Virus record (IMG/VR): IMGVR_UViG_3300010397_000002
Coordinates: 1-64,000 of that record
Direction: 5' to 3' (one strand)
From: a virus
DNA: 64,000 nt
A program made the translations under genes and the position numbers. The notes under the pieces were generated by a model. The model did not search any database. It saw only the letters and a list, made by a program, of their open reading frames with translations, and was not told the DNA's origin. The number at the start of each line of letters is the position of its first letter. Position 1 is the first letter of the stretch. Shown here piece by piece: positions 25,152-61,470 of this stretch.

Positions 25152-25366
25152 ACCTTACCACTTTTATACAGTTCTAAATGTAACTCCCATTTTTTAATCA
25201 GCATCTCCATGTGTTGCTTAATGTCTTGCGGCATTTTATCAATACCTATTGTCAATAAATGTTTGTAGTGGTCGATCATGTACTCAAGACCATCTTTGGT
25301 ATGTCCAATCTTTTCACTACCAATCTGAATTTGATTTTCAAGGTATATTTCTTTTGGCCGATTCAT
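25148..25366 (-). CDS. Hypothetical protein
   Basis: 72 aa, coupled by ATGA overlaps. Confidence 0.55.
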   Translation of the reverse strand: MNRPKEIYLENQIQIGSEKIGHTKDGLEYMIDHYKHLLTIGIDKMPQDIKQHMEMLIKKWELHLELYKSGKV

Positions 25367-25755
25367 AGATATCCTTTTTCTTCAAGTAACATCTCGACTT
25401 TTTTCCAATCAACAAAAGGCTTTGGATGAATCTCTGGATCATAGATCAATTTTATCCCGATATTTTTGTCATCTATGAGAGCCCCGCAAAAAATTTTACG
25501 CGAACCGGTTTCAAATTCAGGATTACAGTTCAAATACTTCATTTCAATACCATGATTCCGTAATAATTCTTCCGCGTCATCAAGAAGATGATTCTCTCTC
25601 ATTGTTATAAGAATAAGAGTATGGCCCGCATCTTGTAATTTTTTTATAGTCTCAATGGCACCTGGAATTGGCTCTCCGATATATGGGTATTCATTGTAAC
25701 AAATCGTAGAGTCAAAATCTATTCCTATTGATGTAACTTTAATTTCCTTCTTCAT
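25363..25755 (-). CDS. HAD-superfamily phosphatase
   Basis: IDFDSTI motif I, ITMR motif II, K...IDDKN motifs III/IV. Confidence 0.8.
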   Translation of the reverse strand: MKKEIKVTSIGIDFDSTICYNEYPYIGEPIPGAIETIKKLQDAGHTLILITMRENHLLDDAEELLRNHGIEMKYLNCNPEFETGSRKIFCGALIDDKNIGIKLIYDPEIHPKPFVDWKKVEMLLEEKGYL

Positions 25756-25961
25756 AAGCTGTGCCTTTTAATATACAAATCCAACGAATCATTAATATCT
25801 CTTAACACTGTAACAAGAGACTTACTTTTTCCTTTTTTATATTCCTTCATCGCCTCCTCCATCCGCTCTTTACTGATGCGCTTAATAGGCACCTTCAACT
25901 TTGGCCGCATTTGGTTGTAGTCGAAAAGAGAAAATTGATGGTGAACTCGGATGAATTTCAT
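25752..25961 (-). CDS. Hypothetical protein
   Basis: 69 aa, coupled. Confidence 0.5.
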   Translation of the reverse strand: MKFIRVHHQFSLFDYNQMRPKLKVPIKRISKERMEEAMKEYKKGKSKSLVTVLRDINDSLDLYIKRHSL

Positions 25962-26251
25962 TTTATTAACTCGTATATTCTTTCAGGTTCAAAATCTGCA
26001 AGCATCCTATTCATATCATCATCCGACTCAACACCTTTTGGTCTTGGATAAATTAACGTTGGTGGCTTATCTTTTTCATGTAATCCAAAAACAATTTCGT
26101 GTCCATCTTTTAAATATCGAATATCCAATTTACCTGGACTATATGTAGAGAAGTAATCATCCACTGATGGAGCGTACGTCTTTACACCGTCTACATAATC
26201 AACACGAAAGGTAGAATATCCGATACTCAATAAATATTTTTGAAAACTCAT
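25958..26251 (-). CDS. Hypothetical protein
   Basis: 97 aa, coupled. Confidence 0.55.
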   Translation of the reverse strand: MSFQKYLLSIGYSTFRVDYVDGVKTYAPSVDDYFSTYSPGKLDIRYLKDGHEIVFGLHEKDKPPTLIYPRPKGVESDDDMNRMLADFEPERIYELIK

Positions 26252-27120
26252 AGCTTTAATAAATCCTCACTCTTAATCGCATACACTCCAGCATGCTTAC
26301 AAGTCTCTGCGGCAGCTTTATTCGCCAGTTCAAGCGAATCATCAATCAGCATTCCGCAAGCATAACACAATGCAATGATAGCAGTTATAGTATCGCCTGC
26401 ACCGCATACATCAACCACACCAACTTCTTCTCCTGGTAAGTGATCTCTTCCTGAAGATGAATACAGATACAATCCTAACTCCCCAATTGTGACCACAAAA
26501 TAATTTATCTTAAGCGTGGTCCTGATGGAGTCTATATCTAATCCTTTAGCTTCGTGCTTATTGCATTTTACAATGTTTGCCCATTTATATTTATGAAAAT
26601 CTTTTTTAGCATCCACAATAACAGGGACATGATTGTCGTTACATAAGTTTATTATTATCTGCGCAATACTAAGGCTAATGGTGCCCTTATGATAATCGGA
26701 GAATATAACTGCATCCAGCGATGGTAACAATTTCTCGAAATCTTCTCTCCAATGGACATCATCATAAGTTATATCTTCTTGGTTGGCATCTTCTTCATCA
26801 ATACGGAGAAGATGATGGTTGGACGACATGATCCTTGTTTTAACAGGAGTTACACCTGCATGGACAAAGACTGTGTGTGCTTTTTTAGCAGATGAACAGC
26901 GTGTGAATAGATAAGCATCAACACCAAGATTCAATAAATTCAAAAGAACATTTCCGGCACCGCCTAGATAAGAAGTTTCTGATGTCTTCATTACCACAAC
27001 AACAGGAGCCTCTGGAGACACTCGTTCAACATCACCAAAGATGTATCGGTCTTCGATAAGATCACCGATGATGGCAATTTTAAGTTTGGATGCTTTTTCT
27101 AGGAGTTCTTGGATATTCAT
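26248..27120 (-). CDS. hldA: D-glycero-D-manno-heptose-7-phosphate kinase (RfaE domain I, PfkB family)
   Basis: IGDLIEDRYIFGDVERVSPEAPVVV, LGGAGNV, KTRI...LLRIDEE, FSDYHKG, DVCGAGDT. Confidence 0.88.
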   Translation of the reverse strand: MNIQELLEKASKLKIAIIGDLIEDRYIFGDVERVSPEAPVVVVMKTSETSYLGGAGNVLLNLLNLGVDAYLFTRCSSAKKAHTVFVHAGVTPVKTRIMSSNHHLLRIDEEDANQEDITYDDVHWREDFEKLLPSLDAVIFSDYHKGTISLSIAQIIINLCNDNHVPVIVDAKKDFHKYKWANIVKCNKHEAKGLDIDSIRTTLKINYFVVTIGELGLYLYSSSGRDHLPGEEVGVVDVCGAGDTITAIIALCYACGMLIDDSLELANKAAAETCKHAGVYAIKSEDLLKL

Positions 27121-27143
27121 TTTAAACTATTTTGTAATTTTTT

Positions 27144-27353
27144 CTAATAAAAATATACTCCAGATTCATTGTAAACTTCTTCTCGCCTACGCTTATATTC
27201 AGTTTTTATGATAATCTTAGGTATTTCAATCCCCCTTAATGCCATAATTTTACACGCTGCTTCTACCCAAGTATTTGGCCAGTATTTACTAGCTTCCTTT
27301 TTACCATCATTAACTATATGATAAATTAATTTTTGTAGTGTTGTCTCCTGCAT
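27144..27353 (-). CDS. Hypothetical protein
   Basis: 69 aa between hldC and hldA. Confidence 0.5.
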   Translation of the reverse strand: MQETTLQKLIYHIVNDGKKEASKYWPNTWVEAACKIMALRGIEIPKIIIKTEYKRRREEVYNESGVYFY

Positions 27354-27754
27354 GCCTCAATAATTTTAGTTGATGAAAATCTCTTGTCTCTTTCAAAGAA
27401 GATTACTTTTGCATGTTCGCTGCCGACTACATATTTGTCTTTGTAGTCGGAGCCTACTACGATGTAGTCAGGTTTCATTATTGATATCCTCTCTTCAAGA
27501 AGATTATTATCATCATGAGAGTCAATTGCTGAAACTACTTGATTTCCATAACAAGTTAATGAAGCGATAGCATCATGCCGTTCTGAAAATTTAAATATTG
27601 GTCGATTTATACCTTTATCTATTGTTATTTTTTTATCAGAATCAAGGCTTACGATAACAGTGCCGTTTACTCCTGCTATTTGTCGACAGAATAAAAGTAG
27701 GTTGATGTGTGCAACTGTTAGGACATCATATGTCCCATTTGTAAATATCTTCAT
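27326..27754 (-). CDS. hldC: Heptose-1-phosphate nucleotidyltransferase (RfaE domain II, cytidylyltransferase-like)
   Basis: IFTNGTYDVLTVAH, LDSD...KG..RPI, KPDYIVVGSDY, FSSTKII. Confidence 0.82.
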   Translation of the reverse strand: MKIFTNGTYDVLTVAHINLLLFCRQIAGVNGTVIVSLDSDKKITIDKGINRPIFKFSERHDAIASLTCYGNQVVSAIDSHDDNNLLEERISIMKPDYIVVGSDYKDKYVVGSEHAKVIFFERDKRFSSTKIIEACRRQHYKN

Positions 27755-27757
27755 AAA

Positions 27758-32386: not shown

Positions 32387-32881
32387 TTAAATTATATTTA
32401 ATTTTGCGAATTCACCATGATATTTTAAAGCGGCATTATTATAAGCTTTTGCGGCTTCGGTTAATGAACGAAATTCACCTAAACTGATTCTTTTTTTATT
32501 AACCCCTATTCTAGATTTAAATTTTCCTTTATACCCTATAGTAACCCCTTTAAATCCTGTAGTATTTATTGTAGAAAGTCCTCTATTCATGGAACTTTGT
32601 GATGGATTTACAATTCTTAAATTAATCCTCCTATTATCAAGTCCATTCCCATTCTTATGATCCACAATTTCTTTGTTTTTTGCATTTAATATTAATCTAT
32701 GCATAGATATAGTTTCCCTTTCCGATCTAGACTTACTTATATCAGAACACGCATAAAAATTATTTGTCTTATGAATAATTTTTAAACACCAAGTATATTT
32801 AGATACTAAATCAAAATCAATAGGATCTATTTTTACTACTTTTTTGCCGTGTTTTTTACTATTGATAATAATTTGCCTCAT
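32387..32881 (-). CDS. HNH-AP2 homing endonuclease
   Basis: MHRLIL...VDHKNGNGLDNRRINLR; TGFKGV...EAAKAYN...HGEFA. Confidence 0.88.
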   Translation of the reverse strand: MRQIIINSKKHGKKVVKIDPIDFDLVSKYTWCLKIIHKTNNFYACSDISKSRSERETISMHRLILNAKNKEIVDHKNGNGLDNRRINLRIVNPSQSSMNRGLSTINTTGFKGVTIGYKGKFKSRIGVNKKRISLGEFRSLTEAAKAYNNAALKYHGEFAKLNII

Positions 32882-40213: not shown

Positions 40214-40912
40214 ATGAATAGAAAAGAACATTTATTAGACATCGCACAAGAAGAATGTGCGGAAGTAGCACAACGCATAAGCAAGGCGTTAAGATTTAGT
40301 TTGGAGGAAATTCAGCCTGGGCAATCGCTAAATAATGCAGATAGAATCATGAAAGAATATTACGACTTAAAGGCCATGATTAAAATTTTACAAAAAGAAG
40401 GACATCTTCCTGAATGGTCTGAAGAAAGAAGTTCATTTCAAATGAATGCTAAAATAATTCAGATTGAAAAATATATTTTACATAGTAAGTCAGTGGGCAC
40501 TTTAACAGAAGACATCTGCAAAATTGAGGTTCCCACTGAGCCTGTGGCACTAGAGAGACATGTGTGTATTTCGCAAGACCATGACCACTATGAATACGAT
40601 AGTTACACAACAGGCCGTAAACAGGACTACGGGCATCACACTCTCAATACAGAAAATGGTTGGGATTGCTACAGCTGGGATCGTGACGAATACACCGAAA
40701 CAATGTACATGAAGCGTCCAAAGGAAGGTAAAGGATGGAAGTCATTCAGGGTTATCACGTATACATCAACTTTTGAAGATTTCCTATCTGAAGTCATGGC
40801 TAGAGCCTACTATGAATCGGTACCAAATTTTGGGTACAAATCCATTGTTGAAGTCGATACGGTATCTGGACAACAGGTTAAGATACTTGAACAGTCTATG
40901 CCGGGTGAGTGA
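40214..40912 (+). CDS. MazG-like NTP pyrophosphohydrolase domain protein
   Basis: AQEECAEVAQRISKALRF...KEYYDL at the N-terminus; unknown C-terminal half. Confidence 0.65.
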   Translation: MNRKEHLLDIAQEECAEVAQRISKALRFSLEEIQPGQSLNNADRIMKEYYDLKAMIKILQKEGHLPEWSEERSSFQMNAKIIQIEKYILHSKSVGTLTEDICKIEVPTEPVALERHVCISQDHDHYEYDSYTTGRKQDYGHHTLNTENGWDCYSWDRDEYTETMYMKRPKEGKGWKSFRVITYTSTFEDFLSEVMARAYYESVPNFGYKSIVEVDTVSGQQVKILEQSMPGE

Positions 40913-40933: not shown

Positions 40934-41117
40934 ATGATCACCTACCACATCTACCCGGAAAATGATTCATCTCCACATAAACTTGATGGATACCAATGCT
41001 CTTGTGAGCCCAAGGCTGGAGTATGATGAGAATAATGAAACGGTACTCGTTGTCCATAATTCTTTCGATGGTAGAGAATTGGTGGAAGAGGCTAATAGGA
41101 TTTTAAAAGAAAAATAA
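40934..41117 (+). pseudogene. Small phage gene interrupted by a +1 frameshift
   Basis: MITYHIYPENDSSPHKLDGYQCSCEPK then, in +1 frame, LEYDENNETVLVVHNSFDGRELVEEANRILKEK*; its TAA overlaps ATG 41117. Confidence 0.55.
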
Positions 41118-42136: not shown

Positions 42137-42165
42137 CGTTTAGAACTTTGGTACAGAAATTTTAA
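41119..42165 (+). CDS. DNA (cytosine-5) methyltransferase, alpha-type subunit
   Basis: Motif I SFCSGIRG, IV GGYPCQ, VI FENV, VIII HERQRIF, X LRALGNA; GTG start. Confidence 0.88.
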   Translation: MDNTKKSPRVISFCSGIRGIERGIEQVIGPLRIVAHVEIEAIIIENMVCEMEAGAVAPAPIWTNARTFPSHLFRGCVDWIVGGYPCQGESLAGKRELENYAGYLWPAIRESIRTIKPMGCFFENVDDHLTGTFKYVLDDLHQMGYSVEAGVFSAEEVGAPHERQRIFILAVHNSSRHRFSEVTSKMGDSNNQQINSSKRRIWTEFNPTSKVVNSSKQRLSVSRFEWIRQHGKEKITGMDRGLEQSSSEFGNTNNPGLEGRNGPVCKKCTTQWTTRENGPFSRVRKWPATAGQNQFKWEHPRTISREAESTVGLSANGFRFREDFLRALGNACVPDQAELAFRTLVQKF

Positions 42166-47010: not shown

Positions 47011-48426
47011 ATGATACTGCATTACATAAATAACAAATTAATTGGAATTGCTAATGAAAATTTATTCTCGGTTAATCTTTTTGATTATCAGTTATTACAG
47101 CAAGACATCATACAAGAAATAGATAACTCTCGGTGGGTTGATAATCATATCTTAATTATAGATAACAAAAAACGATATGAGTTTACGCATAGAGAAGAAA
47201 AAATTTATCTAGGCGATGAACTTATAAGTAATGATTTTAGAGATTTATTTATATCTCTGATTAATCCTGAAATGTGTAGACTGAAAAACAGATTTAAAAC
47301 ATTTACGGATTAACCATCTTCAAAACCTTTCGGTGTATAGGCCAACCGTTGATTTAACTGCAAACTAAATTTAAAACAATGAAACCAACAACTAAAATCC
47401 TCAAAGTATTCACCACCTATTGGACTAAGCAAAGGTATGCACTAGTTCGTATCAATGGAGTTGGTGTATTTATTAAGCTAAACTTTTTAACTGCAAACTA
47501 ATTATGAAAACAATAGACTTACATAAAAATTACATCCTCATTCATAAATTTCGTTATCCAGATGAGCCCATGAAGCAATGGGTTGTAGAAGATGAAACAT
47601 CAATCGGGCAGTATCACAATGATTGGAATGAGTTGATGGAAGTAGTTGATAAGATTGAATCATTAGGTTATGATTCTGGTATTTGTGGCGTAGTAATTAA
47701 AAACGAAAAACTGACAGAGATACTATTTGCCCCACAAGTCAAAAGTAATACCATAGAGGTTCATACCAGGACAAGAAAATCAAAAATAATGGCTACGTAT
47801 GAAGCTGTTGTTATGTGGATAGAATTACATGGAGAAGAAATCCTTAGAGCAAACTAATTATGAAAACTGAACAACAAGTTTTATTCGAAGCAAAAGCAAT
47901 TTTATTTGGCCTATTAGTTAATAAGTCTGATAGTGAATTAACACTTGTTGAAGCTGAGATTTTAGAGGCTATTTCCAGGGATCACCAAATCCAAGAGAAA
48001 CTTAATCTCCCCAAAGATCAAGCTGAAATTGATCGAAGACTGAAAGAGCGAAACACAATCACAAAGCACAATAGCGAATTTCCTTTACCGCCTTACGAAT
48101 CGTATGAAAAAGAATAGACTCCCGCGCAAACTAAAAAAGAAAATTAAAAATCGTCCAAACTTTTTAATTAAGAAGCTGGCGAAAGAAAACGGGCATCTCA
48201 TTTAATCGACTCAAGAAAAATTATAAAGAACGGAAAGATGACCAACACCGAAAAAATAGACACCTTCTTCCATAAGCTTACAGAGGATGAGAAACATGAG
48301 TTAGTATGTCGAAGTGCAAACAGCCAATGGAATTGGCAAACTAATACTGTGATTTTGGGTTGGAGCTCTATGAAGCATTTAGAAAAATACCAAGAAATGT
48401 TAATCACTAAATATTACAACAAATGA
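47011..48426 (+). CDS. Small early genes (47011-47313, 47379-47501, 47504-47857, 47860-48117, 48238-48426)
   Basis: Consecutive ORFs, most preceded by GCAAACTAA. Confidence 0.6.
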
Positions 48427-49133
48427 AAGATGCAATTGGCGACCGAATGAAAAACTACTATGAAGATAGAACAAGATTCTCTCTCATTCGCAGATCATAC
48501 ACGATCATACGCATAGATGGCAAAGCATTTCACACCTACACAAAAGGACTGCAAAGACCTTTCGACGATCAGTTAATAAATGATATGGATCAAACCGCAT
48601 GCTTTCTTTGTAAAAACATTCAAGGTGCTAAGTTTGCATTTGTTCAGTCAGATGAGATTTCAATATTATTAACTGACTTTGAGGAATTAACTACTGATGC
48701 TTGGTTTGATGGTAACATTCAAAAAATGGTTAGTGTATCGGCCAGCTTGGCAACTGCAAGGTTTAATGAATTGCGACCTAGCAAACTAGCTTTTTTTGAT
48801 TCACGCGTATTTCAAATTCCAAGTAAAATTGAGGTAGAAAATTATTTCATTTGGCGCCAACAAGATACTGTTAGAAATAGCATTCAATCTACTGCTCAGT
48901 CAGTGTATTCACACAAAGAACTCGAAAATAAAACCACGGATCAGCAACAAGAGATGATCTTTCAGAAGGGTATAAACTGGAATGATTACGAACCAAAATA
49001 TAAAAGAGGGCGAATTATTCTTAAAGAAAATTATTTGAAAGAATATGCTATTAGAAGTCGTTGGATAAGTTCGGAGGCCCCCACATTCACCAAAGACAGG
49101 GAATTTTTATCAACTAAAATTCCTATCTTATGA
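48423..49133 (+). CDS. thg1: Thg1-like (tRNAHis guanylyltransferase family) 3'-5' nucleotidyltransferase
   Basis: IGDRMKNYYE, IRIDGKAFHTYT, QSDEISI, FDSRVF, WRQQD..RNS, GINWND. Confidence 0.9.
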   Translation: MKDAIGDRMKNYYEDRTRFSLIRRSYTIIRIDGKAFHTYTKGLQRPFDDQLINDMDQTACFLCKNIQGAKFAFVQSDEISILLTDFEELTTDAWFDGNIQKMVSVSASLATARFNELRPSKLAFFDSRVFQIPSKIEVENYFIWRQQDTVRNSIQSTAQSVYSHKELENKTTDQQQEMIFQKGINWNDYEPKYKRGRIILKENYLKEYAIRSRWISSEAPTFTKDREFLSTKIPIL

Positions 49134-49717
49134 TCCGAGGCTACGCCCGCGTTTCCACCCAACACCAAGACCTTGGCCGACAGATCCAAGACCTCAATCA
49201 ATACGGTTGTGAGATCATCTACCAAGAGAAGATTTCAGGCAAACTAAATAAGAGACCTGAGCTTGATAGGATGCTTGAAGAGATGCAAGCGGGTGACGTG
49301 ATTGTCATCCATAAGCTGGACCGACTAGGGCGCTCCCTTCAGCATTTGATTGAGCTTGTGAACACGTTCAAGGACCGAGGCGTTGACTTTATATCGCTCA
49401 AAGATAACTTCAACACCACCACCCCACAGGGCAAACTAATTTTCAATATCATGGGCTCCATCGCAGAGTTTGAGAGAGAGCTAATATTAGAGCGAGTGAA
49501 CAGTGGCATAAAGCACACTAAAATCCATGGCACTAAAACAGGACGGGCACATGGTAGGCCAGACAAAAGCAAGGACCCGAAAACTATTGAGGATGTTGTT
49601 AATTTATATCAATCTGATACAGCGATAACGGTTAAAGAAATTTCGGAAAAGATGAAGATTAGCAGACCAACTGTTTATAAAATTTTGAGGCAAAACACCG
49701 AATTAGTCATTCGTTAA
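49130..49717 (+). CDS. Small serine recombinase (resolvase/invertase)
   Basis: GYARVST..Q, KLDRLGRS, AEFERELI.ER..G, GRP, C-terminal HTH ISRPTVYK. Confidence 0.92.
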   Translation: MIRGYARVSTQHQDLGRQIQDLNQYGCEIIYQEKISGKLNKRPELDRMLEEMQAGDVIVIHKLDRLGRSLQHLIELVNTFKDRGVDFISLKDNFNTTTPQGKLIFNIMGSIAEFERELILERVNSGIKHTKIHGTKTGRAHGRPDKSKDPKTIEDVVNLYQSDTAITVKEISEKMKISRPTVYKILRQNTELVIR

Positions 49718-50016: not shown

Positions 50017-52935
50017 ATGAAAGTAGGCGACATCACCCGCACAGTAATCTCTACCTCTAAAAAACTAAGAGGAGAATCAGAGGTAGTATACAAAACATAC
50101 CTCGGCCAGCACAAAGGCAAGGCTCGGTATAGTTCGAAGACCAAGCATGAGAAGGTTAAAGCGAACTTATAGTATTCTCATTAAATCGATAAATGAATGC
50201 AAAAGACATCTTGGTTAGAATTCTATAATGAAATGATTGTGTTGGATGAAATGCCATATAATGGTATTTGTCCAAACCTATGGAAAAATTATTCACACGA
50301 AATGGAGACTGATCTGATACTTTATATGAAACCGGAAGATACTAGTTACTTTAACTATTGGGCTGACCCTGAATCTAACAAAAAAGAATTCTCGCCTCAG
50401 CGTCAAAACATAGTACTATTAATGGCGGCACTAAATAATGAATTATGAAACACAACATAATCAAAACCGATTCCATACACATTGCTCTTGACTTGATGCA
50501 AAGCGCAGAGGTTAATCTGTCTGTACATTGGAGTTGGAGATATTTTAAATTCATCTATCACATTGAGTTTCTGGCAGCTTAAATATTTCATTATGAAATT
50601 TAAAACTTTTATTAAAGAAACAATGCACTTAAGACGTAGTATGTCGGGTGTTTCCCTTGATTTTGGATGGGGTAATGGATATGTATGTATTCCGAACTGG
50701 CATCCATTTTATGGGCTTGGTTATGATGATATTCACGATATCGCAGAAATAAGCATAAATGGAGGGCTAACATTTTCATCTCACGCAAAAGATATTGCAA
50801 ATTGGCCAGAACTTCCTAAAGATTGTACAGATCATTGGGTCATTGGATTTGATACTGCACATTATCGTGATACCCTTTTGGAATGGCCAATTAATGCTGT
50901 GCAGTTAGCTGCGGATAATTTAGCATTGCAGATATCTTCTTTAAACATCATTGTTTTGTGGTACAGAAGAATCAAGTTGTTGTTTTTAAAATGGATACAT
51001 AATAAAACCGCATGAAAGCACAAACAATCATAACCGTTTTCTCTTGCGTCATTCTCCTTCTGATAGGATTCTTTATAGGCTTTGCCTGGGGTTCATATTC
51101 AAATTATCATCTGGTAGTAGAGCCAGATAAAGGTAGAACAGGATACACTGTGATTGATCATGATAGTGTGGAGTGGAGCGATGGGAAAAGAGAGAAGTAT
51201 AATTGGCATGTGCATACAAGGAAACATAAAGCAAAATAAATTATGAAAAAATTCAAATATCCTCTTGCTATTGAAGGCACAAAAGAACAGTTAGCCAATC
51301 TGGAACCATTGTTAATTTCTTTAGGATACATGATGGTAAATGAATGTAGGCAATATAAACATTCTTCTCCGTGGCTATTAACACGTTTTGGCGTACACCG
51401 TTACCACATAGGATATAATCAAACCCGAGCAAATCATTTAGTAGTCAATGCCTCCAATCCAGACCTTGTATTAGCATTGGCGGCAATGGTTGATGATGGT
51501 GAATTTTATGAAGGTGAGATTGTAAAATATATTGGTAATGATCATAGATGGTGTACGGCTGTTAGTGGAGGACAAGGGAATACATTCATAGTTGATAAAC
51601 AAACAGGCAGAAAGGAATATCTATATGTTAAACCACCTCCAAATGCGATTTGCAATACACCAAATACTTATATTCATCATTTCTGCAAGGCAACAAAAGA
51701 AGAAATTATACAACATTTCACTAAACATACTGATCCCACGGAAAAGAAAATTATTGGATATAAAGTCGTAACAAATATTTTACGATGGGATTACGGAACT
51801 GTCCTAGTAAAACAAAGTACAGGACAATGGGCACCTGAAGGAGCTAGGCCGGGACAAGAATGCGTTAGCAATAATCATTTATTACTTGAAAAAGATCTCT
51901 TTGATCCTGTGTACGAAGAAGAAATAAAGATTATAACTCTCCGTTGTGAAGGAGGAACATTTGAGATTGAGGTGAGTAAGAAAGGGATTTATTATAAACC
52001 GGAGGATGTTTACTTAAGTCTCATTCTATTGAGAAAAGCTATTGATAATAAAATTATGGTTAGTTCTACCAATAAAGACTATTCATTTGTGCCATCACAT
52101 ATAAACTCCGGTTGCAAAAAATCGGTTCCGGTATGTGATTGGGTTAAAGTTCTTGACGCTTACGATGATATAAGCAAATGATCAAACTCCCATCTCTATA
52201 CGCCCTAAAAAAACAACCTCCAACACAAGACATTGTGTATGTCAAAACGGTTAATAAACTTTACCGGTACATTGATGGTGAATGGATTGAGAGAGCATAT
52301 TATACCAATGCTGAGTGTGCGGATATACTAGGGATTAAAGTTGATCGGATGAACCGCATATTCAATAGACTTGGTGTGAATAAGAAATTATACAAGACCG
52401 TAAACTTAAATTACGAACAACTTATTTTGCTTGTGAAGATTTTGAAAATGAAGAAAGAAAATCCTCAGTTGAGGTATAAGGATATAAAACTAAAAATGAA
52501 GTTATAAATATGTTCAACACGACCCACATCCATAATACAAAAGACAGACTAGTTCCTTATGAAAAGACAGTTACTGTTACTGAACATCGGGCGCCAACTG
52601 ATCATTCTGTAGAATTACTGAATGAATTCACTGAGAAGGCGAAGCAAAACATTATTGATACAATTCATATTAAGAACAACGTTATAGAATGCGTTGTTGT
52701 GTATTACTCAGATGATCTTTTGAAGGATAGAATTAATTTCTGGCTTAGATTCAAACTCAACGATAAAGAATATAAGTTAAATGGCGATATCGAAAAAACT
52801 GAATTAATGGAAGTTCACTCTGCGCATGGACTCAGAGTTCAAAAAGTTTTTGATCTTTTAGTAAAAAAGTATTCAGAGATAATAGCTATTGAAATACTCA
52901 AACAAACTCCACAATCACATCAAATATTCTCATGA
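50017..52935 (+). CDS. Run of hypothetical genes (50017-50172, 50197-50448, ~50593-51015, 51012-51239 TM, 51243-52181, 52178-52507 HTH-like, 52510-52935)
   Basis: Closely packed + ORFs. Confidence 0.55.
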
Positions 52936-53510
52936 AAGACATCATCAAACAAGAACTCCAACAAGCCAGCGATGTGCTGAATAAATTCATGGCCGATGAA
53001 GTGAATATTCAAACCATTTGGAATGCCGCTGATGTTATGCGTCATGCTATCAAGTATGGAAAAAAAGTTATTTCATGTGGTAACGGAGGTTCTATGGCTG
53101 ATGCTATGCATTTCGCAAGTGAACTAACTGGCAGGTATCGACATACAAGACGACCATTTAAAGCAATGGCAATTAGCGATCCTTGCTACATTAGCTGCGT
53201 TGCAAATGACTTTGGGTATGAAAATATATTCCACAGATGGATTATGGCATTTGGCGAGCCAGGTGATGTTTTACTCGCCATTAGCACAAGTGGTCAATCA
53301 GAGAATATAATTAAGGCTATTCATGCTGCTCACGATAAGGATATGCATATAGTTTTCCTCACTGGTAAAGAAGGAGGATCAGTTAGGCCAATATTAGATA
53401 TTAATGATATTGAGATAAATGTAGACCATATTGGATATGCTGATCGCATCCAAGAATGTCATATCAAAATCATCCACATTTTAGTTCATTTAATCGAGCA
53501 AGGAATATGA
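52932..53510 (+). CDS. gmhA: Phosphoheptose (sedoheptulose-7-phosphate) isomerase
   Basis: SCGNGGSMADAMHFASELTGRY, NDFGYENIF, ISTSGQSENI, ADRIQECHIKIIH. Confidence 0.93.
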   Translation: MKDIIKQELQQASDVLNKFMADEVNIQTIWNAADVMRHAIKYGKKVISCGNGGSMADAMHFASELTGRYRHTRRPFKAMAISDPCYISCVANDFGYENIFHRWIMAFGEPGDVLLAISTSGQSENIIKAIHAAHDKDMHIVFLTGKEGGSVRPILDINDIEINVDHIGYADRIQECHIKIIHILVHLIEQGI

Positions 53511-54428: not shown

Positions 54429-55349
54429 TTATTTGCAGTGTTGTTTAGCCCATTGCCACCAAATAAGATTAGCCGTTTCAGTTACGGAAGCACGTATTAT
54501 ATTTTCATTTAAATTTCCTGTTCTGATTAAGAAGTCACAAGCAAGCTGTTCATCAGATGATTTAAAAGGATCAACCTCTCTTTCACTTGCCCATTGTTGA
54601 ATGAACTTAGGTAGCTTCTCTTGGATTGGTTCTACATCTGCTGGTGAGAATCCAAATTTCCAGCAATCAAAGCCATCAACACAATCATGTATTCTTTTGT
54701 CGGCTTCACCGAATAGGAATATGTCTTCTTGGATGTGTTTAATTTTTACGAGGTGTTTGTGTTTGTCGCGGACGAAGCCGGTATGATAAATACGGATATC
54801 ATTTAAAAAATCAGGCGAAGCTGATGGCATAAGTCCTAAGCTTTCAGCATCTCCTACACACCTGTATTTAGTTTTAGCAAGACGAATGACGTGTGTGCTT
54901 ACTGGTTTCCTTTCATTTGATACGTTAAGCACAGTATAGGAACTCGCCCAGCAATTCAATCTATGGCAAAAGAATGACTCCTCATCAGTTTCAATTGCTT
55001 GTCGTATGGCATTGGCGCAAGACTCATGAACGCACTCGTCTGATTGAACGTATAGGTTATAATCGGATGTTAAATTATCGATAGCTTTATTCGAGAAGTA
55101 AGAAAGCTTTTCTCTCCCTTGTTGTGAGGCCCATTCTTCTTCACTTATTGGATAAAGAAATATAGGCTTTAATGGAGATGGTAATGATCTTATCCAATTA
55201 TAAACTTCTTCGTTAGTTCCATCCGTACCCCCATAAGCAATGGATATCTGATCACATAGTTCGTAAATACAATTGAATGTTTCTATAAAGCTATAGTCTT
55301 GAGATATCCCATTATAAACGAAGCTGCTTCCACCTAAAGTTATGGCCAT
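54429..55349 (-). CDS. Glycosyltransferase, GT-A/GT2-like
   Basis: YNGISQDYSFIE...LCDQI...GTDGT, YVQSDEC, IYHTGFVR. Confidence 0.75.
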   Translation of the reverse strand: MAITLGGSSFVYNGISQDYSFIETFNCIYELCDQISIAYGGTDGTNEEVYNWIRSLPSPLKPIFLYPISEEEWASQQGREKLSYFSNKAIDNLTSDYNLYVQSDECVHESCANAIRQAIETDEESFFCHRLNCWASSYTVLNVSNERKPVSTHVIRLAKTKYRCVGDAESLGLMPSASPDFLNDIRIYHTGFVRDKHKHLVKIKHIQEDIFLFGEADKRIHDCVDGFDCWKFGFSPADVEPIQEKLPKFIQQWASEREVDPFKSSDEQLACDFLIRTGNLNENIIRASVTETANLIWWQWAKQHCK

Positions 55350-55351: not shown

Positions 55352-55858
55352 TTACAATTGATTTATATTAGCAAATTCCCCATGATGCATAAGAGCCAAT
55401 TCATTATATTTTTTGGCAACATCTATAGCTGTTTCAAAATATCCTGCATGAATATGGATACGATTAACCTTAATTTGACATTGAAATTTTCTCTTATCAG
55501 GTCTCCATGAAACGCCTTTATATCCACTTTTATTCCATTTTTTCTTAGGCATATTATACATATTTTGAGAACCGTTTACGATTCTTAAATTCTGCCTAGT
55601 ATTATTTAATCCATTCATGTCTTTATGATCGATAGATTGAGAGGGGAATCCCATTATTAATCTATGCATTCTAAATTTTTTAGTATTTTTTCTACCACCA
55701 ATCTGAGTGGAGGCATATTTAATTGTTACTTCACCGCTATATCTTGATTTATAACAACTTAAAGTCCAAGTATACCCAGAAACCAATTCGTAATCTTCAT
55801 CATCAACCATCACCTCATGCCTCCCATACTTAGGAGAATTAATTACAATCACTTTCAT
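55352..55858 (-). CDS. HNH-AP2 homing endonuclease
   Basis: MHRLIMG...IDHKDMNGLNN...NLR; SGYKGVSW...HGEFA. Confidence 0.88.
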   Translation of the reverse strand: MKVIVINSPKYGRHEVMVDDEDYELVSGYTWTLSCYKSRYSGEVTIKYASTQIGGRKNTKKFRMHRLIMGFPSQSIDHKDMNGLNNTRQNLRIVNGSQNMYNMPKKKWNKSGYKGVSWRPDKRKFQCQIKVNRIHIHAGYFETAIDVAKKYNELALMHHGEFANINQL

Positions 55859-56463
55859 GCCGCAGTATTTTTATAAAGGGCTATATTGCCCATAGTCTTC
55901 ACCTCTTCAAGCTGCGGATGCTTAGCAATGGCCGGTAATACACCGGGCCCAAACTGACTAAGAATATCATCAAAAGCGAACCACTTAATTTTCAGATCAA
56001 GCGCAAGTTTAATGTCGGCCATGACGTGGTGTTCGAGATGGCCCCCATCGATAAACGCGAGGTCATACTTACGATAACACACATCTGGAAATACCTGAGC
56101 GCTGTCTTTTATAACAACATGAATCCGAGTATTGAATTGTTCGAACAATAATTCAGCGGCCCGCATCGTTTCTGCCTTATCACTTATATCAACAGATACA
56201 AGTGTAGCATCAGTCAAATTAAGCCAAATAGATGCCGAGTACCCGAGGTTAAAACCAATTTCTAGAATTGACTTAGGTTTCACAATATCGACAATCTCCC
56301 GAAAGCATCTCACAGAGTGAGGTCCAACACCCCAAGGTATTCTTTCACCTTTAGCATCAAATCCAGTTCCACTAAATCCTTCTACACCAGGTAATCCAGC
56401 GGTGCATTTATGGAAGAAGGCAATATCCTCATTAGAGGCGTACATTAATTCTTGTTCGGTCAT
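55855..56463 (-). CDS. Class I SAM-dependent methyltransferase (Methyltransf_24-like)
   Basis: ILEIGFNLGYSA, SVDI, YDLAFIDGGH, FDD. Confidence 0.85.
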   Translation of the reverse strand: MTEQELMYASNEDIAFFHKCTAGLPGVEGFSGTGFDAKGERIPWGVGPHSVRCFREIVDIVKPKSILEIGFNLGYSASIWLNLTDATLVSVDISDKAETMRAAELLFEQFNTRIHVVIKDSAQVFPDVCYRKYDLAFIDGGHLEHHVMADIKLALDLKIKWFAFDDILSQFGPGVLPAIAKHPQLEEVKTMGNIALYKNTAA

Positions 56464-56648
56464 TTTGAAAGTCTTATTAAGTTTTTTCTTAGTATTTGTA
56501 ATGTGGCAACATGGCCATCTCTTTGAATAAAATGTTCTGGAATAGGATTTTTACGCCACTTTCTATCAAATAAATACAGAGCACCTTTCTGAAAGGCAAT
56601 GCGCTTTTTCGTTTCCGCTATTTTTCTTTTGATGTAATTACAAGTCAT
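56460..56648 (-). CDS. Small basic hypothetical protein
   Basis: 62 aa, coupled. Confidence 0.5.
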   Translation of the reverse strand: MTCNYIKRKIAETKKRIAFQKGALYLFDRKWRKNPIPEHFIQRDGHVATLQILRKNLIRLSK

Positions 56649-57193
56649 AATTTTCTTAGTATAACGAAGAAACTATAGCAATTAGGACGTAAATCCATTC
56701 CCGAATCAATTAATTCAAAAATCTTCGGCAAGTGATTTCCTTTGAAGTCTTTCCCTTCTCCGCAGAAGGCGCGTTTAATCCAAAACATGAATGGTTCATA
56801 TTTCATATCTACCATGTGTTCAGGATTCTCTTTATTGTCGTAGTGGTCTCCGTCTGGAAGATAGAGTATCATGTGTCCTCCTGGCTTCAACATCATTTCC
56901 CACATCTTAATAGTACCATGTTGATCAGGCATATGCTCCAAAAAATGACTAGAGTATATGGTGTCAAATACATTTATAAAATGATTATCTTTTCTATGCA
57001 TTCTAACCTTCTCCCAAATATCTTCATGTTCACACACAACATCAACACCGGGTAGTAATCTGCCATCAACCCCTGTGGCCTCTGGAGTAATCTTGTGATC
57101 ACCAGACCCAATATCTAAAATGTCTCCAGTAATATACTGCATCACTTGCGGTAGGTCTAGAACCTTATCTGTCTCCGATCTATAATCCCTCAT
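56645..57193 (-). CDS. Class I SAM-dependent methyltransferase (Methyltransf_11-like)
   Basis: LDIGSG, FDTIYSSHFLEH, LKPGGHMILYLP. Confidence 0.85.
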   Translation of the reverse strand: MRDYRSETDKVLDLPQVMQYITGDILDIGSGDHKITPEATGVDGRLLPGVDVVCEHEDIWEKVRMHRKDNHFINVFDTIYSSHFLEHMPDQHGTIKMWEMMLKPGGHMILYLPDGDHYDNKENPEHMVDMKYEPFMFWIKRAFCGEGKDFKGNHLPKIFELIDSGMDLRPNCYSFFVILRKL

Positions 57194-57506: not shown

Positions 57507-58898
57507 TTATTTTTTCCTGTTATATAAAATTACTTCTAATTTATTAATTACTGATTCAGTTGTATGCGTAATACAAGGAGGAGTTGCTTCCTGAACTTCA
57601 CATCCAACACCCTCAACACTGATCACGGAGTGATAGCACCCATCTTTTTTGATCGGGCATTCATTCTGGATGACATGGATGTTGCTTAGATCAGCATACC
57701 GTAGCTTAGCATCAACGCTGCCGAAGAAAATGATTGACTCTACGTTAAGACCAACTGATATTTGCGCCACGCCGCTATCAATACCGATGAAATAATCTGC
57801 ACCATTCAATAAATATAGCATTGAACTTTTATTATGTGCAACCCATCTCAGCCCTACTTTCTTTGATCCATTACCAACGCACAAAATATCATAACCATAA
57901 GCTTTAAACAAATTAGCCACCTCGTACCAATCCACCCCATGCACATTCCTATGATCCATCGCTGTGTCATCAATATGAAACACCACGTATTTCTCAAATA
58001 TTTTCGGCGCGGGGAAATTAAGCTTTGGATTTTTCAGTACACCATCAGTGATCCCGCACACTTCGTAATAAGACTTCAATACCAATTGCTTTGGATTAAC
58101 CTCATAGGCCATGTCCAGGTTAATGGTCTTAGCCTTAATGCCAGGATATTGCTGTACATGAAAGACAGGATAATGATGATGATCAAATAGACTGAAGAAC
58201 TCCGGCATCACGTCGATAATAACTCGATATCCATGATCGTTGAACCATGACATCACAGGCTCCATCATAATAATGTCACCCATGGCCGCTGTACGCTTCA
58301 GGATGATTGGTTCTTTGTAAGGAGGATGGAATTTACCGTGAAAGCCGAACGTGGGCTGCATGGGCTCATGGCATTCATAGGCGAATTGATGTGCAAGTTC
58401 CTCGGGAGCGAATTTTAATCCATCAAGCTCAAGAAGATTGCGATATAATCTACAAATTATTTCATCTTCAGGATGGTATGCCTCTGGTTCAGAAAGGACG
58501 TCGGACTGCATTAATCTTTTAGATCTCAAAGAGAACCCACCATTCCCAACATTCCTCCCATCCTTATAAAACCAAGGAGCGCCAATATAATCGTACTCTA
58601 AAAATTCATCCGTCCACACAGATCCATCGAGTACGTATCCATCGTTTTGAATTATAAGAACGTGAGATGTTATGATATATCTCCACAATTCCTTAACAAT
58701 AAATTTGGAATACTCCTCTTTAGAATTTATTCTTGGAATAACAATTGTTTCGAAGTTATCTGCTTTTAAAGGCTGATCGGTGAAGAAAATTACGCTATGC
58801 GGTGTTATTTGCTCAAGCGTTCGTGTGATTGCCATTATAGCTTCACCGTAGTTTACACAGTCGACGATGATGATGGTTACATTTGGAAGGTGCTTCAT
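57507..58898 (-). CDS. Two-domain glycosyltransferase: DUF5672-like GT-A + GT9 heptosyltransferase-like GT-B
   Basis: LIIQNDG...YDYIGAPW...VGNGGFSLRSK...PED; then LKRTAAMGDIIM..P, FIGIDSGVAQI...FFGS. Confidence 0.8.
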   Translation of the reverse strand: MKHLPNVTIIIVDCVNYGEAIMAITRTLEQITPHSVIFFTDQPLKADNFETIVIPRINSKEEYSKFIVKELWRYIITSHVLIIQNDGYVLDGSVWTDEFLEYDYIGAPWFYKDGRNVGNGGFSLRSKRLMQSDVLSEPEAYHPEDEIICRLYRNLLELDGLKFAPEELAHQFAYECHEPMQPTFGFHGKFHPPYKEPIILKRTAAMGDIIMMEPVMSWFNDHGYRVIIDVMPEFFSLFDHHHYPVFHVQQYPGIKAKTINLDMAYEVNPKQLVLKSYYEVCGITDGVLKNPKLNFPAPKIFEKYVVFHIDDTAMDHRNVHGVDWYEVANLFKAYGYDILCVGNGSKKVGLRWVAHNKSSMLYLLNGADYFIGIDSGVAQISVGLNVESIIFFGSVDAKLRYADLSNIHVIQNECPIKKDGCYHSVISVEGVGCEVQEATPPCITHTTESVINKLEVILYNRKK

Positions 58899-59421
58899 TT
58901 ATAAAGGATAGCTCGTGGAATATTATTTATATTAGAATATTTGACTTTTCTTCTTACAATTTTCCCCTCGATCATATCATCCTCCAAAATTTTCATATTC
59001 CCGCATTTACATATAAAAATTGTGTGTAATAAGAGATATGGACCATGATGATCTTGTGGAGATTTATTTGTTAATTTCCTGAAATGAATGCCTAATTTAC
59101 AAAGAATGCTCATTTTTAATTATTCAAATGAGGGTAATAAAATCTTAATCTTTGATATTCGTCCATTTGATCTCCATCAAGTTTACTTAATTCTGGATAC
59201 ACATTTCCAGATATATATAATGAATAGCACACGTACAAAAACATCTCTAACTCTTCTTCCTTGATCATGACTTGACCTTCATCTAAAGTATAAGACTCAG
59301 AAACGCTTGTTAGATACCATTTTAAATCCTTACGATTTTGCACTCTAACCGATGTTGAAATAGTTATTTGTTGTCCCTCTTTATTAATCTTAAGTTTTGG
59401 GTATATGTAATTTTTATACAT
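58895..59421 (-). CDS. Two small hypothetical genes (58895-59113, 59116-59421)
   Basis: ORF track. Confidence 0.5.
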
Positions 59422-59426
59422 GTTTT

Positions 59427-59810
59427 TTATTTTAATAGTTCTGGATTTTGATGGATGTTACCGATTACCTCTTTATTATTTACGTGAATCCATCCATTAG
59501 ATATACTTCCACATTCACGATCCGTTTTTAAATCAAATATCATAAATCTAGCTTCTGAATCAACCCATTTAACTATATGCCTACATGGTGATCCGTCTGA
59601 ATAAAGTGACTGTATAATATCTGAATCATAAATTTCTACTCGGTTTTTATCTTTAAGTCCGGTATACTGCATAAAAATAATATTGTCTTGCCAAGTGCGT
59701 TCAATAAGATGACTTCCATCATTAGGCTGTATGAATGTAGATATTTCTTGAAGGGTAAAAGTCTTATTCATCCCAGTGATGCCAAACGTTCTAAATTTTA
59801 ATTCCCTCAT
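59427..59810 (-). CDS. YopX family protein
   Basis: MRELKFR...MQYTGLKDKN..EIYDSDI...EVIGNIHQNPELL. Confidence 0.88.
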   Translation of the reverse strand: MRELKFRTFGITGMNKTFTLQEISTFIQPNDGSHLIERTWQDNIIFMQYTGLKDKNRVEIYDSDIIQSLYSDGSPCRHIVKWVDSEARFMIFDLKTDRECGSISNGWIHVNNKEVIGNIHQNPELLK

Positions 59811-60241
59811 TTCACTTCCCCAAAACAGTCCGCAAATCTCATGATCAAATACTTTACCTCATCAATAGTGAAGTCAGTACCGGCGTAGCTGCCGTAAGCA
59901 ATCTTCTGTCCTATATGCAAAGGCAATGCCTTTTCTTTACCTGGGCCGAAAGCAACTACAGTTCCAATCTTTGGCTTCTCTTTATTAATCAGTTCTTCAG
60001 GCTTGTACAAGCCACCCTTTGTCATGGTCTCAACAGGATCAGGATAAACAAGAATGCGATCCTCGTAGGGAGCGAACTTCTCCGTCATGAAGTCTACAGC
60101 GTTTTTCTTTTCTGTACTTTCCTGATGCCTTTTTGATAAGAACTCAGTTTTGTCCTGCATTTCTTTCTGCGACATCTGCTTCACCGCTTCTCTTTCTTCG
60201 TCAGTGAGTTTTGTGCCGGGCATTAAATACGTTTTTTGCAT
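59807..60241 (-). CDS. GroES-like co-chaperonin with N-terminal extension
   Basis: PYEDRILV...TKGGLY...GTVVAFGPG...GTDFTID...YLIMR. Confidence 0.8.
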   Translation of the reverse strand: MQKTYLMPGTKLTDEEREAVKQMSQKEMQDKTEFLSKRHQESTEKKNAVDFMTEKFAPYEDRILVYPDPVETMTKGGLYKPEELINKEKPKIGTVVAFGPGKEKALPLHIGQKIAYGSYAGTDFTIDEVKYLIMRFADCFGEVK

Positions 60242-60244
60242 AGG

Positions 60245-60613
60245 TTATTTTTGATTGATTGTTAATTCTTCTCCAGTTAATGCGTAAAAAAGATTCTGTA
60301 ATTGATGCACATAATAAATTCGTTCTGCTATCAGGGCTTTTAATACATAATTGAACATTGTATAGCTACCGCTTAAGTCACGCCATTGAAGATTCATTCT
60401 TGCGTCTCCATTTGGATATTTTTCATAAGATTTACATTCCTCATTCCATATCCAGCCAAACTTTATCAACCATTCTTCATTTAATGGAATGGGTTTTGGT
60501 TTTAAATAATCTGCAACCTGTTCAATAATTTCAAAATCTACAGCACTAACTTGAAAAATATCACCTGATAGATATTGAATATAATTTCCGAGCATTAATT
60601 CTGAGGCTTTCAT
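60245..60613 (-). CDS. Conserved Bacteroidota-phage hypothetical protein
   Basis: ASELMLGNY...PIPLNEEWLIKFG...YVHQLQNLFYALTGEEL. Confidence 0.7.
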   Translation of the reverse strand: MKASELMLGNYIQYLSGDIFQVSAVDFEIIEQVADYLKPKPIPLNEEWLIKFGWIWNEECKSYEKYPNGDARMNLQWRDLSGSYTMFNYVLKALIAERIYYVHQLQNLFYALTGEELTINQK

Positions 60614-61470
60614 TCTCCCATCAATTTATTAACCCAATACTCAAACAACTCCGTCACTCGAAAATAATAACCACCATCCCCACAAGGATGCACATTTGGA
60701 GCAAAGTCACAAACCTCTAATAATCTAGGTACTTTCATTGCCTCGGCAATCGCGAAGCACATGGATTGGTTGCCTATGAAAAGCTTACAGGAGTTGATGG
60801 CAACGGCCAGTTCATAAAAATCTTTTACTTCAAGTAGTGGTAATTCGAGGTTCCAGTCATGTTTGAAAGTCTCGTATTCCTCTTTAGTACCGGTAAATAT
60901 TAATTTCTCTTCGTATTTTTTGAGATGGAAATAATCGATCCAGTGGCATTGGTAACGTGAGGTACGGTTGATGAGAATTTTACCTCTAAGTTTTATTATT
61001 AATGGATTCTCGGGATAATAATCAGGATCAAGACTTGTAATATCTTTCCTTTCCAATTCAATCCAATGCTTCCAATACTCCGGCCTCATCTCAGCAAACA
61101 CCATTGGCAACCAAGTGACAATATTCCCATAAGGCATGTGAGACTTGACCTGGCGAAGCATATCCAAATCCACCATCACCTTCTCCCCTTTCCACTCATT
61201 AAAAGACTCTACATAAGGCTGCGCTTCGATCAGCGGCTTCAGCATATCAAAGGCGTACCGATTCATCATGCTATTACCATAAGGATGGTTAGCGCCATCG
61301 TACAGGCGCCCTTGCTGGTCCAGCCATTGGTAGATTACAGCCTTTTGGCCGTAGGTATCGCAGTAACTTTTAATGCCCGCAAGCGCATAAATAAGGTCTC
61401 CGGCAAAGCACCCGTGCTTAAATAGTAATTTATTCTCCAAATTTGTATCTTTAAACCTGTTAATTAACAA
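60610..61470 (-). CDS. GT9-like (heptosyltransferase-fold) glycosyltransferase
   Basis: HGCFAGDLIYAL, LIEAQPYV, FYELAVAINSCKLFIGNQSMCFAIAEAMKVPR; start uncertain. Confidence 0.75.
   Translation of the reverse strand: MLINRFKDTNLENKLLFKHGCFAGDLIYALAGIKSYCDTYGQKAVIYQWLDQQGRLYDGANHPYGNSMMNRYAFDMLKPLIEAQPYVESFNEWKGEKVMVDLDMLRQVKSHMPYGNIVTWLPMVFAEMRPEYWKHWIELERKDITSLDPDYYPENPLIIKLRGKILINRTSRYQCHWIDYFHLKKYEEKLIFTGTKEEYETFKHDWNLELPLLEVKDFYELAVAINSCKLFIGNQSMCFAIAEAMKVPRLLEVCDFAPNVHPCGDGGYYFRVTELFEYWVNKLMGE

Follow-up and report, generated by a model that had tools for sequence, protein, structure and literature searches.

A predicted heptose-activation pathway co-conserved with GT9-fold glycosyltransferases in an uncultured soil phage and its relatives

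Introduction

Parts of the bacterial heptose-activation pathway are now known from viruses. Accounts of the survey by Tang et al. (Science, 2024) describe a virus-encoded isomerase, kinase and nucleotidyltransferase whose role in viruses is given as unknown, state that enzyme sets from each sampled kingdom made adenosine diphosphate (ADP)-heptose in vitro, and report the phosphatase of the pathway as absent from viruses (PMC11461863, PMC11573728). Homologues of HldA, HldC or GmhA also occur in cyanomyophages, where they are annotated (e.g., in P-SSM2), and in Lak-type megaphages; a literature search found no paper on cyanophage heptose. Here we describe an uncultured phage from a soil metagenome, IMG/VR record IMGVR_UViG_3300010397_000002, in which predicted genes for GmhA, HldA, HldC and a small phosphatase of the HAD type occur together with genes for two GT9-fold glycosyltransferases, a GT2-like enzyme and two S-adenosylmethionine (SAM) methyltransferases. 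The window analyzed, to which all positions refer, is the first 64 kb (64,000 nucleotides) of this complete 77,300-bp genome, which has 123-bp direct terminal repeats. With viral heptose enzymes and annotated cyanophage homologues already known, the module is moderately novel; the literature search found no earlier account of a full donor pathway whose genes are conserved along with those for a DUF5672-GT9 fusion, another compact GT9-fold enzyme, a GT2-like enzyme and methyltransferases.

The phage follows the same four-step logic as the bacterial ADP/nucleoside diphosphate (NDP)-heptose pathway, with a homologous GmhA, a PfkB-type HldA and a cytidylyltransferase-fold HldC. It differs from that pathway in having a BT0820-type mini-HAD phosphatase rather than GmhB, in lacking a recognizable HldD, in the divergence of its HldA and HldC, which fall below the equivalog cut-offs, and in the placement of the genes, which are spread over two loci inside the replication and recombination modules. 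Compared with the viral enzymes in the accounts of Tang et al., it has a candidate phosphatase beside HldA, and its pathway is co-conserved with GT9-fold transferases, which offers a concrete downstream use.

On the transferase side, the closest described enzymes are the GT9 heptosyltransferases WaaC, WaaF and WaaQ (PDB 2h1h, 1psw, 3tov) and the TibC/AAH type (PDB 4rap, 4rb4). TibC is a protein heptosyltransferase that uses ADP-D,D-heptose, with a four-Cys iron finger and a catalytic D110 (PMC4358343). Soluble, sometimes multi-domain viral transferases are described as decorating the virus's own structural proteins in mycobacteriophages, for capsid and tail (Freeman et al., 2023, cited in PMC12801897), and in the chlorovirus PBCV-1, with A064R; heptose is not reported in these systems, and for the present phage virion glycosylation is a proposal. 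A further parallel is the phage hypermodification of 5-hydroxymethylcytosine (5hmC), which needs a cytosine methyltransferase and a TET-like dioxygenase and uses transferases like the T4 beta-glucosyltransferase (Pyle et al.; bioRxiv 10.1101/2023.12.21.572611), and in which phage-encoded sugar activation and a GT-B enzyme can put heptose on a macromolecule.

The Predicted Donor Pathway

A first-pass annotation of the window, made from the sequence alone, had listed nine genes for heptose synthesis, transfer and methylation, and their positions and family assignments are upheld by profile, PDB and structure matches. The predicted sedoheptulose-7-phosphate isomerase GmhA (192 amino acids; 52932..53510, plus strand) matches the Vibrio and E. 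coli structures (PDB 1x94/2i22) at an E of about 1e-65, scores 264 bits against NF001628, 1 bit short of the cut-off of 265, and retains the metal and catalytic residues H..E and Q..H (His/Glu/Gln/His of the SIS fold). It is 57-58% identical in G001 and G002, two complete relatives of 77,248 and 77,943 bp, and the assignment of this predicted enzyme is unambiguous. The stand-alone HldA-type PfkB kinase (26248..27120, minus strand) has TIGR02198 (rfaE domain I) as its top match at 7.5e-62, followed by ribokinase at 2e-10, aligns end to end with Burkholderia HldA (PDB 4e84; 1.5e-30), retains the GAGD catalytic motif and is 58-62% identical in the two relatives.

The HldC-type heptose-1-phosphate nucleotidyltransferase (142 amino acids; 27326..27754, minus strand) has TIGR02199 (rfaE domain II) as its best family match (5.5e-16) and also matches phrog_7878 (1.8e-27) and PDB 5x9q (6.5e-6). 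Its C-terminal motif is R-D-x-R-F-S-S-T in all three genomes (R-D-K-R-F-S-S-T in the phage); because this departs from (F/L)xxGxSTT, the motif used for the prediction of the nucleotide range in the account of Tang et al. (PMC11461863), the range of nucleoside triphosphates accepted cannot be predicted in that way. No short-chain dehydrogenase/reductase epimerase was found (PF01370 gave no match at E <= 0.1 anywhere in the 77.3-kb genome), which agrees with the earlier remark that HldD was not visible, so that the phage by itself would make D,D-heptose. The start/stop overlaps of 4 nt that join these genes to neighboring phage genes, earlier taken as translational coupling, are real; among them, a small open reading frame (25958..26251, minus strand) shares 4 nt at its start with the end of HldA and is not kept in G001 or G002.

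A Candidate Viral Phosphatase

The phosphatase candidate is a BT0820-type mini-HAD protein (130 amino acids; 25363..25755, minus strand), which matches NF046079 at 2.7e-22 and PDB 2obb at 1.5e-17. A HAD phosphatase close to HldA had been proposed as the GmhB step, and this holds insofar as the motifs are intact (DFDST for DxDxT, T, K..DD) and the gene lies 493 bp from HldA as a separate gene, but no GmhB model is among its matches and its family is that of BT0820. Despite belonging to another family than GmhB, the protein is a candidate heptose-1,7-bisphosphate 7-phosphatase, a role to which we give about even odds; a host phosphatase could act in its place. The gene order HldC-HldA-x-HAD, retained in G001 and G002, speaks for this role. 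A similar arrangement is seen in the Prochlorococcus phage P-SSM2, of an unrelated lineage, in which contiguous HldC-like, HldA-like and small HAD-motif genes (PSSM2_309-311) end in a 114-residue protein with a DxDGT start that aligns to the mini-HAD protein at E 1e-5. P-SSM2 differs in phage family, host phylum and downstream genes, its HldA is only about 30% identical, and no tblastn match to GmhA was found in it.

PHROG 1238, PSSM2_311 of P-SSM2 and many phage records bear the name "phosphoheptose isomerase" wrongly, as the proteins behind it are DxDxT mini-HAD phosphatases of the BT0820/PDB 2obb type and not SIS-fold isomerases. A literature search found no paper on BT0820.

Transferases and Methyltransferases

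The larger of the two GT9-fold proteins is a two-domain glycosyltransferase of 463 amino acids (57507..58898, minus strand), in which residues 1-192 form a DUF5672 domain of the GT-A type and residues 195-463 a compact GT9 domain of the GT-B type. Its AlphaFold 2 (AF2) model, built from a 40-sequence alignment, has a predicted local distance difference test (pLDDT) score of 93. Aligned with VIA-align, residues 195-463 match TibC with Z 22.5 (260 residues, 2.7 A), WaaF with 20.1, the Veillonella GT9 protein 3tov with 20.0 and WaaC with 19.6; TibC was ranked first by Foldseek (3.9e-10), by VIA-align and by a PDB-sequence profile search. The two proteins share a shortened N-lobe and the position of the catalytic Asp, and the C-lobe of the phage protein carries a Cys-rich insertion that is a putative counterpart of the TibC metal finger. 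They differ in that the phage protein has a GT-A domain in place of the N-terminal beta-barrel (TibC_1st is not present in it, and the alignment begins at TibC residue 96) and in its cluster of three Cys and one His against four Cys in TibC.

The residues of this domain are strongly conserved. The Asp aligned with WaaC D13 and TibC D110 is invariant in the family (G207-D208), R202, G207 and D208 show full conservation or conservation of 90% or more in both a close and a 97-member distant alignment, HMMER places the N-terminal motif of the domain on the WaaC N-terminus, and the D-S-G loop (D374-S375-G376) is invariant. Across the 97 relatives, down to about 20% identity, the conservation of C421, C433 and C442 is 90% or higher, and H423 is near-invariant in closer relatives; this cluster sits at the position of the four-Cys iron finger of TibC (PMC4358343) and is a putative metal site. 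Scores against family models are low (13.5 bits for PF01075, Glyco_transf_9, with a cut-off of 22; 20.6 bits for the TIGR04414 equivalog, with a cut-off of 200), and a precomputed PF01075 match exists for many homologues. Among the 97 distant relatives, 90 match NCBIfam models of RfaQ/HepIII lipopolysaccharide (LPS) heptosyltransferases and 37 the TibC model. Judged by the predicted structure, the protein is a GT9-type enzyme, with a subtype that the comparison of TibC and RfaQ does not fix. The DUF5672 domain has a GT-A fold like those of GT6/GT8 enzymes and the chlorovirus protein A64R, at Z about 12 (12.0 for PBCV-1 A064R, PDB 2p72); a literature search on DUF5672 gave a sole match, which was irrelevant.

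The second GT9-fold protein (60610..61470, minus strand) has 286 amino acids from a TTG start and 276 in the database gene call, by which we refer to it. It has no Pfam or other family match and was assigned through its AF2 fold (pLDDT 90), for which GT9-type structures rank 1-10 (Z 14.3-17.4) and the next fold class reaches 10.5. The earlier proposal of two GT9-fold transferases thus stands for both proteins on their predicted structures, despite the lack of a Pfam match. K8 and D15, the context of the catalytic Asp, are invariant in the 276-aa family, and at 70-76% identity in G001/G002 this is the best conserved transferase of the set. Both phage proteins share with WaaC, WaaF and WaaQ the GT-B fold, an N-terminal K/R...G-D motif and a putative C-terminal nucleotide-sugar loop. 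They differ from these enzymes in their acidity and in a length smaller by about 50 residues, the acceptor lobe being trimmed; one is fused to a GT-A domain and the other has N-Q-S for D-T/S-G. In viral comparisons, proteins of giant viruses rank among the closest folds to the 276-aa protein, and fusions to methyltransferases and other transferases are seen in thousands of viral proteins of the compact GT9 kind. A database protein, P0238 (407 amino acids), is a 276-aa homologue with a C-terminal TylF-type (PF05711) sugar O-methyltransferase domain.

The GT2-like enzyme, a soluble GT-A-fold protein of 306 amino acids (54429..55349, minus strand), has no Pfam, NCBIfam or PHROG match; as proposed earlier it is GT2-like, by language-model features (ESM Atlas feature score 0.98) and predicted-structure match only (template modeling score 0.72-0.77 to GT2 clusters). 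It has an S-D-E motif and is 58% identical in G001 and G002. Of the two SAM methyltransferases, MT182 (182 amino acids; 56645..57193, minus strand) belongs to the Methyltransf_23/11 class (PF13489, 42.1 bits, above the Pfam cut-off), adjoins the 463-aa gene and is 49-65% identical in G001/G002. MT202 (202 amino acids; 55855..56463, minus strand) is an accessory, O-methyltransferase-like member of the Methyltransf_24 class (PF13578, 43.9 bits, above the Pfam cut-off) with weak matches to O-methyltransferase and CmcI families, and is present in G002 (69%) and not in G001. The PBCV-1 glycosylation system also includes methyltransferases. No transmembrane segments are predicted in the heptose, transferase and methyltransferase proteins, all of which are acidic (isoelectric point 5.1-5.8).

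Conservation and Co-occurrence

The phage belongs to an uncultured lineage. Its DNA is present in a soil metagenome that may be its source, and no RNA sequencing run containing it is listed. Its genes include those for a portal, a large terminase and virion proteins, among them a putative capsid protein (11771-13231), and its closest cultured relatives infect Bacteroidota, the terminase being just 26% identical to those of the nearest cultured phages (Flavobacterium and Cellulophaga podophages). G001 and G002 are far closer, with 82% identity in the terminase (TerL) and 72% in the portal, and share genes with the phage at about 50-76% identity in an identical three-locus layout. Both keep the HAD, HldA, HldC, GmhA, 306-aa, MT182, 463-aa and 276-aa genes and two GroES-like genes as open frames. 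In all three genomes GmhA directly adjoins the transferase locus, in convergent orientation. The GC content of 0.33-0.39 is even throughout the region, so that nothing appears recently imported.

The first-pass annotation had named a lack of co-occurrence in relatives as a refutation, and the genes do occur together, also beyond G001 and G002. In a large protein database, homologue clusters number at least 169 for the 463-aa and at least 270 for the 276-aa protein, mostly on contigs of 67-82 kb, and HldA occurs with 463-aa or 276-aa homologues on at least 19 shared contigs of 60-82 kb, down to about 40% identity. Contigs were matched here by identical size across three protein searches, and the count of 19 is a lower bound and not a census. 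A near-identity DNA search of both loci against a phage collection and a single-sequence HldA scan of viral contigs gave no match, an alignment-based HldA scan of viral contigs returned only G001/G002 and one fragment, and a metagenome scan with a 24-sequence HldA alignment, built on generic motifs, returned only bacterial-type GmhA-HldA-HldC loci, with no member of the phage family and no mini-HAD locus.

The Proposed Pathway and Its Acceptor

From the observed gene inventory, folds, conserved catalytic residues and family-wide co-conservation, we infer that the phage would make its own NDP-heptose and build from it a short, methylated heptose glycan, a reading of activities and donors that we hold at a probability of about 0.6. 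GmhA would isomerize the substrate, the HldA-type kinase would add the beta-1-phosphate, the 7-phosphate would be removed, probably by the neighboring mini-HAD protein and otherwise by a host enzyme, and the HldC-type enzyme would attach a nucleotide whose identity is not predictable; the product of the phage's own pathway would be the D,D-heptose form. Soluble, acidic phage transferases would then build the short glycan in the cytoplasm, with heptose transferred by the two GT9-fold enzymes, further sugars coming from the DUF5672 and GT2-like GT-A domains, and one or two SAM methyltransferases methylating the glycan sugars. Heptose use by the transferases is suggested by their fold, one catalytic Asp and co-conservation. 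Overall, what the first-pass annotation had observed is confirmed, while its interpretation, a self-made activated heptose placed as a possibly methylated glycan on virion proteins, DNA or the host surface, is partly supported.

As to the acceptor, the phage's own virion proteins are our first choice, at somewhat less than even odds. They are favored because TibC is nearest to the 463-aa protein and a Cys/His cluster sits at its iron-finger site, because all the enzymes are soluble, and because viral compact-GT9 proteins are fused to methyltransferases and transferases and giant-virus folds lie near the 276-aa protein. Host LPS core or another envelope glycolipid is a serious contender, to which we assign a substantial minority share; DNA is very improbable, and some other acceptor takes what is left.

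A number of observations weigh against parts of this reading. HldA reaches only 209 bits where the TIGR02198 cut-off is 345, and HldC 58.7 bits where the TIGR02199 equivalog cut-off is 181.5. The HldC assignment stood in that rfaE domain II is the best match, but the HxGH motif (residues 11-15) is degenerate in the phage, reading T-V-A-H where G001/G002 have H-V-G-H and the family in general H-x-G-H; apart from this site the phage protein is as conserved as its neighbors, and it may be a weakened or altered enzyme. The mini-HAD family has members in 255 records of phages (those of Listeria, Klebsiella and Enterococcus, crAss-like phages and others), mostly without HldA, an HldA homologue being present in only 31 phage records, none from the mini-HAD-carrying Listeria, Klebsiella, Enterococcus and crAss-like groups, and the mini-HAD gene was found near none of 80 bacterial HldA loci; because the family is so widespread in phages without heptose genes, its heptose role can only be inferred. 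Donor and transferase genes lie up to 36 kb apart, so that the link between them is drawn from co-conservation alone. Among the transferases, TibC is preferred over WaaF by only about 2 Z units, RfaQ/HepIII matches are both stronger and commoner than TibC matches in the wider relatives of the 463-aa protein, and the 276-aa protein has an invariant N224-Q225-S226 where GT9 has D-T/S-G. Finally, in bacteria the homologues of the transferase modules neighbor an MsbA-type exporter, a setting more suggestive of an envelope glycolipid than of a virion acceptor.

This last point belongs to the most substantial rival, the remodeling of the host envelope, which we consider rather unlikely as a full account but well worth keeping in view. 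The phage transferases would act on lipid A-core or a lipid-linked glycan at the inner face of the cytoplasmic membrane, host MsbA/Lpt would export the altered molecule, the phage heptose pathway would merely boost donor supply, and the payoff would be a block to superinfection or progeny kept off infected cells and debris. GT9 is overwhelmingly an LPS-core family, the 90 of 97 relatives noted above match LPS heptosyltransferase models, and the 276-aa protein is nearer to WaaC/WaaF/3tov (Z 16.2-17.4) than to TibC (14.8). In bacterial chromosomes, homologues of the 276-aa protein are found within envelope-glycan loci, and others in loci with polysaccharide genes. The cluster of Mucilaginibacter limnophilus (NZ_SACK01000002.1, 5126-13138) runs GT9, GT4, GT2, MsbA-type ABC exporter, 276-aa homologue, GT2, DUF5672, DUF5672 and is likely an LPS-core-type locus with the same uncharacterized modules as the phage, and an Arcticibacter metagenome-assembled genome has a similar ABC-GT2-homologue order. 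The earlier claim that the phage genes are not a captured LPS operon is right in that they have long been resident in the phage family, but sits less well with Mucilaginibacter, where homologues of the GT9, 276-aa, GT2-like and DUF5672 modules form one group next to an MsbA-type exporter. The five tested Bacteroidota genomes with a 276-aa homologue all have their own HldA and GmhA, which implies that likely host groups possess both acceptors for heptose glycans and routes for their export. The idea that the phage carries a full pathway because its host lacks heptose was rejected for the taxa that could be tested, on the same five genomes. What tells against envelope remodeling is that no integrase or repressor was found in the phage, so that no lysogenic state, in which surface conversion usually pays, was identified, that the enzymes are all acidic and without membrane segments, that the GT9 domain of the 463-aa protein is nearest to a protein-modifying enzyme, and that giant viruses, whose eukaryotic hosts lack LPS, have similar compact GT9 proteins.

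Phage DNA, which the first-pass annotation had also offered as a target of the glycan, fares worst of all. Heptose on a hydroxymethylated base would shield the phage genome from host nucleases, and there is precedent in phage clusters in which a HAD/APH enzyme, a cytidylyltransferase and a GT-B put mono- or di-heptose on 5hmC (bioRxiv 10.1101/2023.12.21.572611). The phage also encodes a C5 cytosine methyltransferase at 41119-42165; in the interval 41117-42165 only the frame from GTG 41119 matches DNA methyltransferase models (PF00145, 96.6 bits, and phrog_363), the overlapping frame from ATG 41117 having no family match. However, neither a Tet/JBP-type dioxygenase (PF12851) nor a ThyA-like hydroxymethylase (PF00303) was matched genome-wide, a very divergent dioxygenase being possible, and G001 is without the C5 methyltransferase while retaining the complete heptose and transferase set; because no such enzyme was found and the methyltransferase is not conserved, a DNA target is most unlikely. 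The transferases are, moreover, GT9-like, and the T4 beta-glucosyltransferase is not among the listed fold matches of either the 463-aa or the 276-aa model. A further explanation, improbable though ahead of DNA, is that the loci are unlinked in function, with the heptose genes topping up host LPS precursors or draining sedoheptulose-7-phosphate and the transferases using other host-made sugar nucleotides. In its favor, distances of 25-36 kb separate the three loci, which are on different strands, no donor is predicted for the GT-A domains, the usual D-T/S-G motif is missing from the 276-aa protein, and likely host groups already make heptose; yet both gene sets stay together on the long contigs counted above across deep divergence, the catalytic Asp is kept in two separate GT9-fold proteins, and GmhA is the immediate, convergent neighbor of the transferase locus in each of the three genomes.

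Other Features of the Genome

The phage encodes a tailspike-like protein of 915 amino acids (4201-6948, minus strand) that matches the pectin-lyase type of beta-helix and, at its C-terminus, resembles a polysaccharide deacetylase, which suggests a polysaccharide receptor. It is conceivable that this predicted beta-helix is an acceptor for a TibC-like enzyme; it has 24% Ser+Thr, and a hunt for acceptors by Ser/Thr richness across the virion proteins found only the expected enrichment in this protein and was uninformative.

Two GroES-like genes, at 59807-60241 (minus strand) and 61751-62623 (plus strand), flank the 276-aa gene in all three phages; the former, a Cpn10-domain protein (PF00166, 1.8e-15), lies between the transferase genes in each, and one of the two has a 200-residue N-terminal extension. 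Three HNH homing-endonuclease genes are present (24630-25151, 32387-32881 and 55352-55858), one with a NUMOD4 and one with an AP2 domain. That at 55352..55858 (minus strand; phrog_99, 8e-36) is inserted inside the transferase locus, stands outside the pathway and is not in G001 or G002; the genes at 55352 and 24630 are variably present among relatives, which makes them recent mobile insertions beside the sugar genes.

Where an integrase or repressor was sought, only a small serine recombinase of the resolvase/invertase type was found, translationally coupled to a gene for a Thg1-like tRNA-His guanylyltransferase (3'-5' polymerase family), the pair occupying 48423-49133 and 49130-49717; the recombinase is kept in G001 and G002, and the Thg1-like gene has no match in either. 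A DHH/DHHA1 phosphoesterase (62668-63522, plus strand) and a MazG-like nucleoside triphosphate pyrophosphohydrolase fragment (40214-40912, plus strand) may possibly modify nucleotide signals or the nucleotide pool. A 20-bp palindrome, ATAGTnATATATATnACTAT, recurs in five copies between gene blocks (at 23062, 38499, 44538, 49778 and 61800) and has no specific tie to the heptose loci, the upstream regions being mostly small open reading frames.

Implications for Viral Heptose

The most far-reaching form of our reading is that, throughout a large uncultured family of soil and freshwater phages with genomes of 67-82 kb, heptose from a self-encoded supply of NDP-D,D-heptose is placed on the phage's own virion proteins, a mini-HAD phosphatase taking the part of GmhB. 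We put this forward tentatively, as doubtful but serious, and extend it with the same reserve to a virus-dominated clade of compact GT9 proteins with a conserved Cys/His metal finger. If virion proteins are indeed heptosylated, this would be the first virus-encoded system of its kind and would answer what viruses do with heptose. Beside HldA, the mini-HAD gene offers a definite candidate for the phosphatase that surveys had missed in viruses. A glycan on the virion would be a new decoration of the phage coat, bearing on adsorption, stability and recognition, and one on the host would amount to surface conversion by a phage without detectable lysogeny genes. In either case, the co-conservation of donor and transferase genes turns the purpose of viral heptose, called unknown in commentaries, into experiments on named genes.

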